Of a stretch of 64,000 nucleotides of DNA, positions 660 to 58,811 are shown piece by piece. Made by a program: the position numbers and the translations under genes. This DNA is from a virus. The first letter of the stretch is position 1. The number at the start of each line of letters is the position of its first letter. The DNA lies in the IMG/VR virus record IMGVR_UViG_3300044634_002252, positions 26,140 through 90,139 of that record. One strand, given 5' to 3'. The notes beneath the pieces were generated by a model. The model ran no database searches and had not been told where the DNA came from. It worked only from the letters and a program-made list of their open reading frames with translations.

Positions 660-1244
660 GTGACCGCCTACACTCCAGAAATTATAAGATTTCTCAATTT
701 AATCCCAGAACCCTTTGAGGCTATAATAGTTTGCTACCCAAGATCTGGGTCAACCTATTTGGGCAGATATATGGACCAAAGAGCTATGGTACATTTAAAA
801 AAGTCTCATGCTTGCGAGGTAGTGCCTGGATACAAGATAGTAGGAACCTTTAGGAAACCTGAAGAGTCCATAACATCTTTTGTCTCTATGGAAAGTTACT
901 ATCAAAATAGAACCGACTATCAGGTTATGATAAACAAAGAGATAGCAAAATATAATCAAATGTTAGATTTTTTAATTAAAAACGCTGACATCATGGTTGA
1001 TTACCAAAGAATGATTATGGCCCCAGAAGAATCTATAAAACTTGTCTGCAATGCTCTAGGCATTAATGTTAAATATCATTTTGACTACATAGATCAGATA
1101 GAAGATATGCCAAAAGACAAATTCCTAAAATCTAGTAAGTATTTAAAACAATACAGGCAAATCGAAAATATGGTTTTAGAGTCTGATCTAGAGGCTTCCA
1201 AAAATCTATATAGCATGGCCTTAAAGCTAGATAAAACTATTTAG
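660..1244 (+). CDS. Sulfotransferase-like P-loop protein
   Basis: YPRSGSTY (5'-PSB-like), KSH, FRKPEESITS (3'-PB-like), YxxMIxAPEE motifs. Confidence 0.65.
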   Translation: MTAYTPEIIRFLNLIPEPFEAIIVCYPRSGSTYLGRYMDQRAMVHLKKSHACEVVPGYKIVGTFRKPEESITSFVSMESYYQNRTDYQVMINKEIAKYNQMLDFLIKNADIMVDYQRMIMAPEESIKLVCNALGINVKYHFDYIDQIEDMPKDKFLKSSKYLKQYRQIENMVLESDLEASKNLYSMALKLDKTI

Positions 1245-1270
1245 ATTTATTATAGCAATCTTGTGCTTTT

Positions 1271-1798
1271 TTAGATATTAGACAACTGCTCTGCCTCTTC
1301 TGAGACAGAAAGTTCTAGCTTTATTCTTTCATCAATTACGCTGTAGTCATCGGACATTTTTCTTCCATTTGATAGATATCTAAAGAAAAGTTTTCTATAA
1401 TGAAAATTGCAAAAAAAGCTGTGGTGTCCGTTATCATGTCTTGTTGCTTTTACAAGACTGCTGTATCCACACCAGCACTTTCCAAAACTATTTGAAATGC
1501 CTTTTCCAGATATTTCTGGAAAGCTTTCTCTTATTAGCTCTCTCTCGTCTATGACTATTTTAGCTATCTCATCCCATTGGTCTGGTGTTCTACGAAGAGT
1601 TATATCCTTCTCGTAATAATAGTGATAGTCGCACAAAAAACGTTTACCCCTGCTACCCTCAATATAAACAGAAGCTGGAGCAACACAAGATGTATTTGCT
1701 TTCATTGGATCATCAATAATATAGTTAGTTTTTTCTGGAATAATCATTATTGGGTCAAACGCTTGGCACAGCTGATCCTCTGAGATAGATCTTGTCAT
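1271..1798 (-). CDS. Hypothetical protein with two tandem Cys/His zinc-finger modules (DUF7455-like)
   Basis: FLCDYHY...VIDERE and FFCNFHY...VIDER, echoing LMFCGHH...IVDERE of 130..372. Confidence 0.6.
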   Translation of the reverse strand: MTRSISEDQLCQAFDPIMIIPEKTNYIIDDPMKANTSCVAPASVYIEGSRGKRFLCDYHYYYEKDITLRRTPDQWDEIAKIVIDERELIRESFPEISGKGISNSFGKCWCGYSSLVKATRHDNGHHSFFCNFHYRKLFFRYLSNGRKMSDDYSVIDERIKLELSVSEEAEQLSNI

Positions 1799-6764: not shown

Positions 6765-7422
6765 AAAACTCCTCAATTCCTAAATCTATTATAGCATTCC
6801 TGGGAATTATCATATCGTAAATAGGCGATAGTCTTTTGACTTTTCCAAACTCATTATCTATCATATGACTGCCTTCTTTTTTAAATCTAAAAGGTATCAT
6901 AAATGGCTCTAAATACCTTGTGTCTTCAGGAATTTTAATGCAATGTCTTGTAGTTTCAAATATCTTAAATGCAGACTCTTCTTCTGGAACTACAAATCTA
7001 ACCTCACAGCTTGAATCGATTATCCAAGGAGTATAGGCCACAAAAGTATCTTCAAAGCACTCCGAGTCTAGGCCTGCAACATATGACGATCTATAAAATT
7101 GTCGCAACCATGGCCTATCTAAAAACTTTCTCTCTTTATTATTTACTAAAATAAAAACTTCTGCATGACTATATTGCCTCAGTCTAATAAAATTATCATC
7201 AATGCCGATTAGCTTTGGTGCTGGATAAAGAGCCTCTGCGTATTTATTAATTGGCTTTATTACGCTGTTCTTGTATTTTTCCAATGACTTTATTTTTTGA
7301 AAACTTAGCCACTTTTCTGGAACTCTAGAATTAAAAGAAATTTCTACAAAGCTTGGATCATATGTTGACTTCCATATTCCAAAATCATAGTCAGTATTAT
7401 TAAGTATTTCTGGTTTATCCAT
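6751..7422 (-). CDS. Hypothetical protein, possibly a divergent third dUTPase-fold-like paralogue
   Basis: VPEKW, TPWII and GKVKRLSPIYDMII resemble the neighbours' motifs; start at MDKPE. Confidence 0.45.
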   Translation of the reverse strand: MDKPEILNNTDYDFGIWKSTYDPSFVEISFNSRVPEKWLSFQKIKSLEKYKNSVIKPINKYAEALYPAPKLIGIDDNFIRLRQYSHAEVFILVNNKERKFLDRPWLRQFYRSSYVAGLDSECFEDTFVAYTPWIIDSSCEVRFVVPEEESAFKIFETTRHCIKIPEDTRYLEPFMIPFRFKKEGSHMIDNEFGKVKRLSPIYDMIIPRNAIIDLGIEEFYAKD

Positions 7423-8128
7423 TAGGGCCTGCAATTAAAACAGATATGAAATCTGACTGGTTAATCTTCATGCTAAGAACTTTATCAATAACGGCAGACA
7501 CGCTATCTCTGACTATTGTTTGATCTATCATGGTGACATTAATTCCAATTCCTACGGGATGATGCTTTCCAAAAACAGTTTGAATATCTTTTAAAATTTC
7601 TATGATTTTAGAGTTGTCGTCTTTTCTATTTTTAACTAAAAATAAATATGAAGTATGACTTTGCTTAACCCAATCAAACTTTTCTAGCCTGCCTTTTGAA
7701 GACGAACCTGGAACATCATCTTCGAATATAAAAGACTTGCCACCTACTCCAAGTATAGCAGGCAAGGCTGAAATAATTGATGGTCCTGGAATTACCTCAA
7801 CTGGAAGGCCTTGCTCATGAGCAATAACAATTATTTTGCCACCTGGATCTGCTACTCCTGCCATCCCATCGTCTGGGCAGATCAAAACATTTTTGTTGTT
7901 TTTTAGTGCTTGAATAACTTCCAAAATTATTGGAACCTCAGACTCTTCGTCCATTGGGGCGTAGTACTCAATTATAGCGCCAGACGGAACAATAGCTAAG
8001 TCTTTGCAAAGATTGTCAAACATATATCTATTTTCTACTAAAACAATGTCACAATCTTTTATCGCAGATATCATCCTAAGACCAACGTCTAGCCTATTGC
8101 CAATGTCTACTCCGCCAACGATTAACAT
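7415..8128 (-). CDS. RsmI-like SAM-dependent methyltransferase (tetrapyrrole methylase fold)
   Basis: LIVGGVDIGNRLD (cf. LYLVATPIGNLED), VLVENR, DDGMAGVADPG (cf. SDAGTPxISDPG), VEVIPGPS, FIFE. Confidence 0.75.
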   Translation of the reverse strand: MLIVGGVDIGNRLDVGLRMISAIKDCDIVLVENRYMFDNLCKDLAIVPSGAIIEYYAPMDEESEVPIILEVIQALKNNKNVLICPDDGMAGVADPGGKIIVIAHEQGLPVEVIPGPSIISALPAILGVGGKSFIFEDDVPGSSSKGRLEKFDWVKQSHTSYLFLVKNRKDDNSKIIEILKDIQTVFGKHHPVGIGINVTMIDQTIVRDSVSAVIDKVLSMKINQSDFISVLIAGPNG

Positions 8129-8143
8129 CTGTTCCTTTCTTTG

Positions 8144-8215
8144 AGCCTCCTGTCAGGATTGAACTGACGACCTACGCATTACAAGTGCGTTGCTCTACCA
8201 CTGAGCTAAAGAGGC
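8144..8215 (-). tRNA. tRNA-Thr(UGU)
   Basis: Cloverleaf GCCTCTT/AGGAGGC, anticodon loop CTTGTAA, GTTCAATC; no encoded CCA. Confidence 0.95.
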
Positions 8216-8216
8216 G

Positions 8217-8289
8217 TACTCCCAACGGGATTCGAACCCGTGCTACCGCCGTGAAAGGGCGACGTCCTAGGCCACTAGACGATGAGAGC
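8217..8289 (-). tRNA. tRNA-Glu(UUC)
   Basis: GCTCTCA/TGGGAGT, loop CTTTCAC, GTTCGAATC; no CCA. Confidence 0.95.
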
Positions 8290-8293
8290 AGTG

Positions 8294-8367
8294 CGACCCT
8301 GACCAGACTTGAACTGGCGACCTCCTCCGTGACAGGGAGGCGCTCTAACCAACTGAGCTACAGGGCC
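8294..8367 (-). tRNA. tRNA-Asp(GUC)
   Basis: GGCCCTG/CAGGGTC, loop CTGTCAC, GTTCAAGTC; no CCA. Confidence 0.95.
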
Positions 8368-8370
8368 CTT

Positions 8371-8420
8371 GTCCACTTTTATCCCTTCTCTCTGCGGGAG
8401 TGGTGTAGACTAAACCATTA
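8371..8420 (-). ncRNA. Candidate structured RNA, copy A (pseudoknot plus hairpin), between tRNA-Gly and tRNA-Asp
   Basis: UAA-UGGU-UUA-GUCUAC-ACCA-C-UCCC(N10)GGGA-UAAAA-GUGGAC; covaries with copy B. Confidence 0.65.
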
Positions 8421-8421
8421 G

Positions 8422-8492
8422 AGCGAATGGAGAGAATCGAACTCTCACCGTCAGTTTGGAAGACTGAGGCACTACCACTATGCAACATTCGC
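8422..8492 (-). tRNA. tRNA-Gly(UCC)
   Basis: GCGAATG/CATTCGC, loop CTTCCAA, GTTCGATTC; no CCA. Confidence 0.95.
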
Positions 8493-8495
8493 ATT

Positions 8496-8544
8496 GCCCA
8501 TTTTTATCCTTATACCCTTAGGAGTGGTATGGGCCACACCATTA
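8496..8544 (-). ncRNA. Candidate structured RNA, copy B, between tRNA-Asn and tRNA-Gly
   Basis: UAA-UGGU-GUG-GCCCAU-ACCA-C-UCCU(N9)AGGA-UAAAA-AUGGGC. Confidence 0.65.
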
Positions 8545-8545
8545 G

Positions 8546-8617
8546 CTCCCCTCCGTGGATTCGAACCACGAACCGACGAGTTAACAGCTCGTTGCTCTGC
8601 CATTGAGCTAGAGAGGA
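8546..8617 (-). tRNA. tRNA-Asn(GUU)
   Basis: TCCTCTC/GAGGGGA, loop CTGTTAA, GTTCGAATC; no CCA. Confidence 0.95.
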
Positions 8618-8649
8618 TTGTGCCCGTTAAGGATGGGCTTCCATTTTAT

Positions 8650-9687
8650 TTAATTATTATACACTGAGTCGAGCTGGCTTGCAAGATCCCTAAGGGTCTT
8701 TGCTAGTTCAGATGCAGACGCTCTATCTAAAGTGTCGGTAGAAGCAGCATTGGCACGAACCTTTTGAATCAAAGATGCCAAACTGTCTAGCGATCCCAGC
8801 AAAAGCTGTCTTGAAGATACAGTGGATGTTGTTGCTGGTGTTTCAGCTACCACTCCTACAACCTTAGAAACTGTAGGTTCTGGAGCTTTTGCCTTAACTG
8901 TAGGAACTGAGGCTACTGCAGCAGTCACCGTTGCTACTGATGTTGTAAAGCCAACCATAAATGGATTAGGGCCTGTAGTGGTAATTGGAAAAGAGTCGTG
9001 CAACCCCTGAACGGCAGTCCTAATAGACTTTAAACTCTTACTAGTATATGCATTGCCAGATAGCACTAGGTCAGATCGCTGAGTGCTGCCTGCAAACTGA
9101 GTAGAACCAACTGCAACAGAGTCTGAAATACATGCTGGATAGTCAATGTTGTTTCCGCTTCCATAGTTTCCAGATGAGGCATAAAAATCAATCTTGGATG
9201 CCTTGAGTACGGCGATTGCATTAACAACATTGTTATGAGTTGTCAAAATATTTACACCTGGAGATGCTGGCGTACAGCTTGAGCCTTTTCCAGCATTGTA
9301 AGAAAATGACACTGCTTTAATATTATACTTAGCTGAATTAGCAATTACCCAATTAAGAGCATTGGATAACTGAATTCCAGTAATTACACCAGTCTTGTCT
9401 GTTCCTGCCTCAATTAAAACTAAGGGAATATTTGCGTTATTTGATCTAGCAACATCTGCCATGATTGTGCCATGATTAAATGCCTTAAACTGTGAAGTGT
9501 TTCTTGGAGTTGGAGCTGAGCTACACACCGAAGGTGCAGCCAAACAAATCTCTGTTACCTCTCCACTAATTAAAGTAGATTCAAAATTTACATCAATAAT
9601 TGCAACGGCCCCAGTTGTTTCTGCCTGAGCTGGAACAATTCCAACAAGTGCAAGGATTGTGACAAATGCAATAGCTAGTTTCTTCAT
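8650..9687 (-). CDS. Secreted subtilisin-like (S8) protease with C-terminal helical extension
   Basis: Signal peptide ending AQA; AIID (Asp), NHGTIM (His), SSGN (oxyanion), YPAC, TTSVAT (Ser). Confidence 0.75.
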   Translation of the reverse strand: MKKLAIAFVTILALVGIVPAQAETTGAVAIIDVNFESTLISGEVTEICLAAPSVCSSAPTPRNTSQFKAFNHGTIMADVARSNNANIPLVLIEAGTDKTGVITGIQLSNALNWVIANSAKYNIKAVSFSYNAGKGSSCTPASPGVNILTTHNNVVNAIAVLKASKIDFYASSGNYGSGNNIDYPACISDSVAVGSTQFAGSTQRSDLVLSGNAYTSKSLKSIRTAVQGLHDSFPITTTGPNPFMVGFTTSVATVTAAVASVPTVKAKAPEPTVSKVVGVVAETPATTSTVSSRQLLLGSLDSLASLIQKVRANAASTDTLDRASASELAKTLRDLASQLDSVYNN

Positions 9688-57182: not shown

Positions 57183-58811
57183 TTATTCTGAAGATCGGCC
57201 TTCTCCTTGAGCATTTCTACCTGATATGGTAGCCGTACTGTCGGACTGGTTATTTGTTCTCTCGGTGTCCCTTTGTCTGTTGCCAGCTAGGTTGGACCTA
57301 GAATCTGCAGCCTGTCTTGTAGACATCTCAAATGGCTCATCTCCGTCTGGCCTTTGTGGCAAGCCAAGAACTTCTCTGGCCTCATTTGGAACCATAATCT
57401 GAGTCTTAACATAACGCTCTAGAATCTGTGACTGAGCAATTTCATCAGTGAGGGTAAGCTCATTAAATCTTAGCTCAAGGACGTCTGTCTTTTCCTTAAC
57501 AATTCTATTTACAAGCTTCTCAATAGTCCTCTGTAGAGGTCTAGCGACCTGCTCCTTAAAGGTACGGTCCTGAGATAGCGAAGATGCAATACTTGATGAG
57601 TCGGATCCACCTATCTTTGACAAAGGAACCTGATGCGCAACAAGGATGTCGTCACGATTACGCAATCGGTACTCATTAAACGAAGCCTCTTGAACATTAT
57701 TCTCAACTGGCTTCATTTCAAACTCAACCTTGTTTTGATCTGTGTCGCCTGGAAGTGGAATGTAAAGGGTTCTATGAGACTGCCCTTTTAAGTTTGTTTG
57801 CATAAATCTGAACAGCTTGTCTTCAGCCTCTGAAGAAAGCTTGGCGCCCTTAAGAGTAAAGATGTACCTAGGAACTGCCTTATTGCTAAAGTAGTCTATA
57901 TTGTACTGTGATGCCAGCTGGTCACCATGTAATGAAGATACAGCAGACATAATGTCTGGTATACCGTAGTAAGTGTTTAGCGGAGAGTACTGCTTAAAAT
58001 GAATAATTTCATTTGGACGTGGGTCCTCAGTAATAGGATTTATGTTTGTAGCTTCAAAATTTCTAAAGTAAACTACTTTGTTTCCAATAATCTGAACATA
58101 TCCATCCTTTAGTCTACGAACACGCATAGTTGTTGCAGGGATGTGACCAATATATCCGATTTCTCCACGTGTAGTTCTTCCAATTTCTAAATAGCCATTT
58201 CCAGTAGACTCGTAGTCAGTCAGAACCTTCATCATTATATTAGTAAAAGCTTCTTCATCATTAAGATTTTCTAACCAGTCACGCATTTCCATCTTTATTC
58301 TTTCGATGCGCTTTCTTGCCTTTTCTCTTGCTGAATCATTTTCGTTAGACTCTAGCATCATAAGCGTTCTATCGGAAACATGGAAGTCGTATCCTAGGCC
58401 TACTGTATTTTGTACTTTTGCGTCAATCGATGCATGGTTTGCAAATGACGTGTCATAAAAATTAGCTAACTCATAAAGATTCCATGGCGGAGTAATGACA
58501 TCAAACATACCGTAGCCATTACGATAAACAGTCCCTGGGTTTATTTCTTTTGAGGTTGCACCGTTCATACCAGAATTAATTGCAAGAGCGCTATCTAGAT
58601 AAACTGGATTTGAGGTATCTAAGTTTTTTGGAACTTGAACATCGTAGGCCTTTGACATTCTGTCTGTTCTACGTTTAAAGTTTTTCTCTAGGCCAGTCAG
58701 ACCCTTTAGATCATTCCAGGTCTTGTTAAAAGGATCTTGAGCCTTAAAGTCATCTTGAGCTATTTCTGACTCTGGCAAGCCCAAATCTCTAATATAGTAG
58801 TCTTCAGACAT
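57183..58811 (-). CDS. Portal protein
   Basis: DYESTGNGYLE, EIIHFK..SP...YYGIP, YFSNKAVP, PNEAR..LGLP. Confidence 0.92.
   Translation of the reverse strand: MSEDYYIRDLGLPESEIAQDDFKAQDPFNKTWNDLKGLTGLEKNFKRRTDRMSKAYDVQVPKNLDTSNPVYLDSALAINSGMNGATSKEINPGTVYRNGYGMFDVITPPWNLYELANFYDTSFANHASIDAKVQNTVGLGYDFHVSDRTLMMLESNENDSAREKARKRIERIKMEMRDWLENLNDEEAFTNIMMKVLTDYESTGNGYLEIGRTTRGEIGYIGHIPATTMRVRRLKDGYVQIIGNKVVYFRNFEATNINPITEDPRPNEIIHFKQYSPLNTYYGIPDIMSAVSSLHGDQLASQYNIDYFSNKAVPRYIFTLKGAKLSSEAEDKLFRFMQTNLKGQSHRTLYIPLPGDTDQNKVEFEMKPVENNVQEASFNEYRLRNRDDILVAHQVPLSKIGGSDSSSIASSLSQDRTFKEQVARPLQRTIEKLVNRIVKEKTDVLELRFNELTLTDEIAQSQILERYVKTQIMVPNEAREVLGLPQRPDGDEPFEMSTRQAADSRSNLAGNRQRDTERTNNQSDSTATISGRNAQGEGRSSE

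Follow-up and report, generated by a model that had tools for sequence, protein, structure and literature searches.

Comparison of phage tRNA arrays points to a new RNA family, an element of ∼50 nt that serves as a fixed 3′ trailer of phage tRNAs. The element is predicted to fold as an H-type pseudoknot in which the loop of a 4-bp helix (P1, consensus YGGY/RCCR) bears the 5′ strand of a second, long-range helix (5-7 bp). On its way back to pair in this helix, the chain passes through a C, a hairpin of 4 bp and the sequence UAAA(A), of which the C and UAAA(A) are invariant, and the A-rich strand probably lies in the minor groove of P1.

The first two copies were found in a stretch of 64,000 nucleotides (hereafter the window), which is part of a linear IMG/VR virus record of 90 kb with an estimated completeness of 79%. 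Five tRNA genes were located on its minus strand by ARAGORN and Rfam, in the order Asn, Gly, Asp, Glu and Thr; the tRNA coordinates in Table 1 are those of Rfam, and the ARAGORN calls add the following C. The spacers from Asp through Glu to Thr are 4 nt and 1 nt long and contain no element. All five tRNAs have C at position 74 (8143, 8216, 8293, 8421 and 8545, minus strand), and CCA is encoded in none of them. C74 is present with or without the element and thus belongs to the array, whereas the linker proper to the element is UAA. The Glu-Thr spacer consists of a single C, and therefore tRNA-Glu would end in C74 if RNase P were the only enzyme to cut. A promoter-like site ahead of tRNA-Asn is a possible start of the array transcript. 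No terminator-like site was seen between tRNA-Thr and the TP_methylase gene, and thus this gene may be co-transcribed with the array; the other neighbour genes of the element encode proteins without a family match. A coding function of the region was discarded, because the plus-strand open reading frames across the array overlap the tRNAs and the substitutions are compensatory.

Table 1. Coordinates of the tRNA array, the two copies of the element and other features of the window, and of manA RNAs in related loci
Feature	Source	Position	Strand	Description	Support
tRNA-Asn (GUU)	Window	8546..8617	-	no encoded CCA; upstream partner of copy B	Rfam tRNA 64.0 bits, ARAGORN
Copy B	Window	8545-8493	-	53 nt; between tRNA-Asn and tRNA-Gly	model R1 72.8 bits, E 4.5e-15
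Copy B, 5′ part	Window	C74 8545; UAA 8544-8542; P1 5′ UGGU 8541-8538; loop 1 GUG 8537-8535	-		
Copy B, middle	Window	long-range helix 5′ GCCCAU 8534-8529; P1 3′ ACCA 8528-8525; C 8524	-		
Copy B, hairpin	Window	UCCU 8523-8520; loop 8519-8511; AGGA 8510-8507	-		
Copy B, 3′ part	Window	UAAAA 8506-8502; long-range helix 3′ AUGGGC 8501-8496; tail AAU 8495-8493	-		
tRNA-Gly (UCC)	Window	8422..8492	-	3′ of copy B, 5′ partner of copy A	Rfam tRNA 66.2 bits
Copy A	Window	8421-8368	-	54 nt; flanked by tRNA-Gly and tRNA-Asp	model R1 68.8 bits, E 4.1e-14
Copy A, 5′ part	Window	C74 8421; UAA 8420-8418; P1 5′ UGGU 8417-8414; loop 1 UUA 8413-8411	-		
Copy A, middle	Window	long-range helix 5′ GUCUAC 8410-8405; P1 3′ ACCA 8404-8401; C 8400	-		
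Copy A, hairpin	Window	UCCC 8399-8396; loop 8395-8386; GGGA 8385-8382	-		
Copy A, 3′ part	Window	UAAAA 8381-8377; long-range helix 3′ GUGGAC 8376-8371; tail AAG 8370-8368	-		
tRNA-Asp (GUC)	Window	8294..8367	-	downstream of copy A	Rfam tRNA 68.1 bits
tRNA-Glu	Window	8289-8217	-	same array	Rfam
tRNA-Thr	Window	8215-8144	-	same array	Rfam
Promoter-like TTGCAA-17-TATAAT	Window	8656..8684	-	∼39 nt upstream of tRNA-Asn; pattern match only	consensus scan, 10/12 positions
TP_methylase-family gene	Window	7415-8128	-	starts 15 nt past tRNA-Thr	Pfam E 4e-17
Portal protein gene	Window	57183-58811	-		
manA RNA	L173	204-386	-		66.5 bits
manA RNA	L019	657-838	-		64.5 bits
manA RNA	L179	2099-2285	+		55.5 bits
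manA RNA	L170	2127-2312	-	just under gathering score	54.2 bits

Rereading of the window gave both copies with the same sequences and parts as the preliminary description, including the compensatory swaps that it had noted between A and B in the long-range helix (GUCUAC/GUGGAC versus GCCCAU/AUGGGC) and in the hairpin (UCCC/GGGA versus UCCU/AGGA). The core pattern had two exact occurrences in the window, copies A and B, and one further match with three mismatches on the other strand, compared with a chance expectation of 0.41 matches at up to three mismatches; two copies are more than chance would give. The long-range helix, loop 1 and the hairpin loop all differ between these two copies of the same phage, and thus it is the fold rather than the sequence that is conserved. 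The minimum free energy fold of each copy is the nested part, that is, the long-range helix and the inner hairpin, and the folding energies of the two copies are -12.6 kcal/mol (z -0.61) and -13.0 kcal/mol (z -1.89). Such energies alone are unremarkable, and therefore the case rests on comparative data.

The preliminary description had proposed a candidate new RNA, to be checked against Rfam, and our scans, which gave no matching family, agree with it. Rfam 15 was searched with positions 7900-9000 of the window at E values up to 10, and only tRNAs and spacer noise were returned (DUF2815 RNA, E 3.7; YrlA, E 0.4). At gathering scores the whole window gave the five tRNAs and nothing else, and eight related loci, at E up to 1, gave no family for the element and no HDV-type model. 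Literature searches returned no description of the motif. One catalogue (PMC10690425) reports 8,495 unnamed structured-RNA candidates from IMG/VR and may contain the motif.

The search for further homologues with covariance models, which had also been proposed beforehand, yielded a family set of 99 copies (65 distinct sequences; model R2) from 89 pattern-seeded viral and metagenome loci, one copy being present in 79 loci and two in 10. Four pattern scans supplied the loci. The pattern derived from copies A and B found 29 IMG/VR loci, 16 of which were true homologues and 13 chance matches; leaving most of P1 free added at least two loci (L094 and L133). With the upstream T-loop as anchor and no constraint on P1, 57 metagenome loci were found, among which 33 fit the covariance model (37 hits at E < 0.01), and a pattern fixing only the P1 GG, the P1 CC and the following C added another 37 IMG/VR loci. 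The upstream T-loop was demanded by two of the four scans, and thus unbiased support for the tie to tRNAs comes from the other two, in both of which the true hits were all tRNA trailers. The covariance models were run on the 89 pattern-filtered loci only; the remaining fetched loci were scored as chance matches by script, and L273 was removed by eye after the filter. The set is therefore a lower bound of at least 99 copies, and more exist. Among 185,579 species genomes of cellular organisms, none of the seven pattern matches had the CUAA prefix or a complementary long-range helix, the pattern being so strict that diverged copies could escape it. Copy B had no blastn match in 50,697 GenBank phage records, and the matches of the whole array to GenBank phages were confined to the tRNAs. 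The cultured phages closest by portal protein, three of which (all from Streptomyces) were scanned, lack the element: R2 returned nothing but partial hits in them (E >= 0.015). On the basis of these GenBank searches and the three Streptomyces phages, we know of no cultured carrier.

The conserved, covarying pseudoknot proposed from the two copies is borne out by the family. Standard pairs are formed in 99.6% of 899 alignment cells (99 copies, 65 distinct), compared with 30-47% in a control in which the partners were slid by 1-3 columns. Changes on both sides were observed in 11 of the 14 pairs: all six of the long-range helix, all four of the hairpin, which is completely swapped to CUAC/GUAG in two sequences, and one of the four in P1. 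It should be noted that many of the sequences are mutually related, so that cell counts overstate the number of independent events. P1, on which the pseudoknot character of the fold depends, reads UGGU/ACCA in most copies and is intact in every copy. Its covarying pair is UA in 58 sequences and CG in 7, and its inner pair is UA in 59 and UG in 5. CGGU/ACCG occurs in seven distinct sequences, all from one clade, and UGGU/GCCA in five sequences with at least three helix backgrounds; UGGC/GCCA occurs in a single copy (L189:3199) that was parsed by hand, being misaligned in alignment A4 and counted there as a gap. With two independent double changes and several wobble steps, the support for P1 is modest but consistent. 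Of the 899 cells, 21 are G-U pairs, which the opposite strand would turn into A-C mismatches; thus, the structure belongs to the tRNA-sense RNA, and a function at the DNA level was dropped on account of this strand specificity. Two other readings of the short motifs were also discarded. Pairing of UGGU with an ACCA tail disagrees with the tails of the CGGU copies, which are non-complementary to it, and the internal ACCA as a mimic of a CCA end disagrees with its change to ACCG together with a compensating change, which indicates that pairing rather than CCA identity is selected.

The invariant unpaired positions are C74, the UAA linker, the C after P1 and UAAA(A), the last being present in all 65 distinct sequences; the one exception in the linker is a natural copy (L012) with UUA, that is, CUUA. 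Other parts vary in length, including loop 1 (0-3 nt), the long-range helix, the hairpin loop (∼4-11 nt), the A-rich strand and the tail.

All 99 copies are preceded by a tRNA-type 3′ end with zero length variation (N73-C-UAA-P1). ARAGORN called the upstream tRNA for 94 of them, namely Asn in 61, Asp in 19, Gly in 8 and Met in 6; among the uncalled cases, three are truncated by contig starts and two are tRNA look-alikes (L188 and L206). On the downstream side, 87 copies have a called tRNA within 12 nt, with a tail of 2-5 nt, whereas seven have no tRNA within that distance; two more reach the ends of their loci and three are followed by uncalled tRNA-like sequences. Thus, of two statements in the preliminary description, that the element starts right after the tRNA discriminator holds for the whole family, whereas that it ends exactly 3 nt before the next tRNA holds only in the window. 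The tail sequences of the 87 copies include ACCA (11), ACUA (12), AAU (21) and many others, and the 11 ACCA tails end exactly at the RNase P site of the next tRNA. In two loci (L019 and L028), the element is separated from tRNA-Gly by an inserted gene for an HNH endonuclease (phrog_2255, E 9e-30; no Pfam hit), which occupies 1134-1583 (-) in L019, is the same in L028 and extends with its 3′ end into the tRNA. In two others (L253, 3188-3235, and L289), a hairpin of ∼45 nt, identical in sequence, separates the element from tRNA-Asp as another slot filler, and in L156, L232 and L263 the element stands at the end of the array. The same tRNA species are also found in relatives that lack the element, the Asn-Gly spacer being 0 nt in L133 and 14 nt in L199; therefore, no single tRNA needs it.

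Other RNAs share this kind of location. In four related loci, manA RNA (RF01745; gathering score 55.2) lies flush between tRNAs and not in a 5′ UTR (Table 1), and such array-embedded copies would be released by tRNA processing. manA RNAs commonly occur in potential 5′ UTRs of genes (Weinberg et al., 2010). The element itself fits a descriptive class that may be called tRNA-punctuated passenger RNA, that is, a structured non-tRNA RNA flush between tRNA genes. Two further kinds of sequence were observed in these arrays. tRNA look-alikes of ∼68 nt (L006 1761-1828, L019 846-913 and L173 393-460; others lie 5′ of the element in L188 and L206, and 3′ of it in L167) have a good acceptor stem and T arm with an odd anticodon region; they score 42-44 bits as tRNA in Rfam and are uncalled by ARAGORN. 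A conserved spacer of ∼170 nt without an Rfam match lies 3′ of tRNA-Gly (L006 1587-1760, L011 1510-1682, L019 914-1087 (-) and L025 2333-2680). It begins with a hairpin, followed by a part resembling an H-type pseudoknot (5-bp helix, 1-nt loop, 7-bp second helix and A-rich third loop), and is possibly a second uncatalogued trailer RNA.

We also considered the phages that carry the element. Genes for RNA end healing and processing (CCA-adding enzyme, RNA ligase, RtcB and RNase Z-type fold; PF01743, PF09414, PF01139 and PF12706) were each absent from all five carrier phage records, three of which are at least 95% complete. Therefore, host enzymes would have to act. Among cultured phages, the portal protein is best matched by Streptomyces phages of the Stanwilliamsviridae (∼46% identity), which suggests a freshwater actinobacterial host. 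Sequence matching the surroundings of the array is frequent in metagenomes of lake water: of a 601-base stretch around the array, at least half of the sampled words are present in each of at least 14 lake or freshwater DNA runs, which stem from 11 studies. Six RNA runs hold small shares of this stretch. The contigs of three of these RNA runs cover tRNA bodies only and neither spacer; they probably come from other organisms and have no bearing on expression either way.

The best explanation, to which we give about an even chance, is that the element is a tRNA-trailer module freed by host tRNA-processing enzymes, leaving a nuclease-resistant RNA of ∼50 nt. The element would be transcribed within the transcript of the tRNA array, in which only C74-U-A-A is left exposed between the body of the tRNA and the knot. 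A host endonuclease for tRNA 3′ ends, of the RNase Z type or another single-strand-specific one, would cut in C74-UAA and make the tRNA free for CCA addition. RNase P cleavage at the next tRNA would leave 2-5 unpaired nucleotides on the element; where no tRNA follows, trimming by a 3′ exonuclease back to the knot would have the same result. Bacterial 3′ exonucleases need a single-stranded overhang longer than this to start. The product would be a compact knot with both ends nearly buried, resistant to exonucleases and likely to persist as a discrete small RNA. It may function in trans as a small RNA, such as one that binds a protein through its fold, or the element may simply provide a well-defined cut site. 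Release by host enzymes is proposed because C-UAA is the sole exposed stretch and the tail is shorter than the overhang that exonucleases require. The absence of healing enzymes from the carriers fits such reliance on the host, unlike the situation of theta ribozymes, beside which genes for CCA-adding enzyme and RNA ligase are enriched, as reported by Kienbeck et al. (PMC10879173). On the other hand, a rigid 5′ junction with a loose 3′ side would also be expected of a ribozyme that defines the site itself, and RNase Z might be impeded rather than helped by a stable knot that lies 4 nt from the cut. Conservation of the P1 GG/CC, the C and UAAA seems to exceed the apparent need of a mere spacer, and no protein or RNA partner is known for a role in trans.

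Self-cleavage seems rather unlikely to us as an alternative. The element would then be a new class of small ribozyme, unrelated to the HDV-like theta ribozymes and among the smallest natural ribozymes, that cleaves at C74 or beside it and, in the manner of theta ribozymes, generates the tRNA 3′ end on its own; the knot would set the C-UAA linker in an active site among P1, the base of the hairpin, the invariant C and the A-rich strand. Its niche directly 3′ of CCA-less phage tRNAs is the one that theta ribozymes occupy (PMC10879173), its strand order resembles P1-P2-P4 of HDV, and its size is within the range of known small ribozymes. Moreover, the junction length is constant in 65 distinct sequences and four tRNA slots while loop 1, the A-rich strand and the tail vary, and nine unpaired nucleotides are invariant or nearly so. 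However, Rfam gave no match to a known ribozyme family, no unpaired G is conserved, a U is found where HDV has its catalytic C, the enzymes associated with theta ribozymes are missing (CCA-adding enzyme and RNA ligase, 0 of 5 carriers each), and a natural linker variant, CUUA, exists. In another reading, P1 stacked on the long-range helix (∼10 bp), with the following purine and tail, would imitate the acceptor/T arm of a tRNA, so that RNase P could cut in loop 1, or the element could be a decoy for enzymes that grip the acceptor or CCA end or for defence nucleases. For this there is precedent: bacterial RNase P RNA cleaves H-type pseudoknots with a 3′ RCCA in loop 1 (PMC12710915), and defence systems that cut CCA exist and accept minimal stem-plus-CCA substrates (PMC12851939). 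The long-range helix starts with G-C in 50 of 65 sequences and is itself mostly followed by A, and the ACCA tails at RNase P sites would suit such a mimic. Yet ACCA is a minority among the variable tails and is absent from both window copies (AAU and AAG), the compensated ACCG again speaks for pairing rather than CCA identity, and cleavage in loop 1 would destroy the conserved fold; we consider this reading improbable.

The knot could also act as a roadblock in the manner of an exonuclease-resistant RNA, its fold, braced by the A-rich strand, withstanding unwinding from the 5′ side and stopping a 5′-to-3′ exonuclease of the RNase J type once the upstream tRNA has been cut off, which would shield the RNA downstream. 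The H-type knot, the A-rich strand beside P1 and the presence of only 4 unpaired nucleotides at the 5′ side are in line with this, as is the fact that the nearest cultured phage relatives infect Actinobacteria, which possess RNase J. Nevertheless, directly abutting tRNAs, such as Asp, Glu and Thr in the window, need no shield, seven of the 99 copies have no downstream tRNA within 12 nt, the fixed 5′ junction is left unexplained and no sequence likeness to known xrRNAs was found in Rfam, which makes such a role improbable. We regard as very improbable a ligand-sensing aptamer that gates maturation of the neighbour tRNAs. Its design, a small H-type knot with an A-rich third loop and an invariant junction C, is common among riboswitch aptamers, such as those of the preQ1 and SAM-II types. 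The tRNAs most often found as partners, Asn and Asp (80 of 99), are queuosine-modified. But the element also occurs behind Gly and Met tRNAs, no riboswitch family was matched in Rfam, and there was no sign of an expression platform or of a pathway for a candidate ligand.

Phage tRNA arrays increasingly turn out to carry structured RNAs, such as theta ribozymes and manA, and the element is a compact and strongly supported addition, with 65 distinct sequences, covariation in every helix including the pseudoknot-forming P1 and an unusually strict tie to tRNA 3′ ends. If it cut itself, it would be a new ribozyme class; if a host enzyme cuts, it would represent a phage route to defining tRNA 3′ ends or to delivering a nuclease-proof small RNA; and in the case of cleavage by RNase P, that enzyme would have a natural pseudoknot substrate. 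Whether RNase P targets pseudoknots in vivo is called an open question by the authors of PMC12710915. At ∼50 nt, the element is easy to study in vitro and by structure solution.

Among known systems, theta ribozymes are minimal HDV-like ribozymes located directly 3′ of phage tRNAs lacking CCA (Kienbeck et al., 2024; PMC10879173). Both they and the element are small nested pseudoknots immediately 3′ of CCA-less phage tRNAs, and the order of P1, long-range helix and hairpin in the element equals that of P1, P2 and P4 in HDV. However, the element has no P3/L3 or P1.1, both of which belong to the five-helix nested double pseudoknot of HDV-like ribozymes; its 5′ long-range strand abuts the P1 3′ strand in all 65 distinct sequences, and thus there is no room for P3/L3. 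It also has U, not the catalytic C, at the first J4/2-equivalent position, where a change of C to U is reported to inactivate the ribozyme (PMC10879173), and its carriers lack the CCA-adding enzyme and RNA ligase genes. Together with the absence of an HDV-type Rfam match, the missing P3/L3 and P1.1 and the U in J4/2 led us to reject an HDV-like or theta identity, in agreement with the preliminary description. The element further resembles the pseudoknot substrates of RNase P and the viral tRNA-like structures (PMC12710915) in its H-type knot, coaxial helices, and purine with a short 3′ tail, but differs from them in having ACCA in only 11 of 87 tails and an extra hairpin in loop 3; the 3′-terminal RCCA of that class is replaced by AAU and AAG in the window copies. 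In contrast with viral tRNA-like structures, no aminoacylation or anticodon mimicry is evident.

preQ1-II riboswitches, to which the preliminary description likened the topology, combine an H-type pseudoknot, a hairpin within its third loop and an A-rich strand. The element shares all three, but Rfam gave no match for it at E up to 10, its position is outside 5′ UTRs and no queuosine genes adjoin it; with no Rfam match, and with 99 of 99 copies behind a tRNA and mostly before another, membership of preQ1-I, preQ1-II or other pseudoknot riboswitches was rejected. Type III antitoxins of the ToxI type, which form tandem direct repeats beside the gene of a cognate endoribonuclease toxin, are likewise small pseudoknotted RNAs that occur in multiple copies and are cut out by endonucleases, as the element would be. 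The earlier idea of an antitoxin mimic nevertheless found nothing in its favour: there is no tandem array, the copies being parted by whole tRNAs, no Rfam antitoxin family matches, and sequences vary between copies in the same phage, contrary to what would be expected of a sequence-specific antitoxin mimic. Parallels in location are the T4 stable RNAs C and D, non-tRNA RNAs carried inside a phage tRNA array, and manA, which occupies other slots of the same arrays in related phages. Like the element, these lie flush between tRNAs, so that tRNA-processing cuts would release them. In contrast with manA, which is ∼190 nt long and has another fold, the element is ∼50 nt long, was found only as a tRNA trailer and has a fixed junction.
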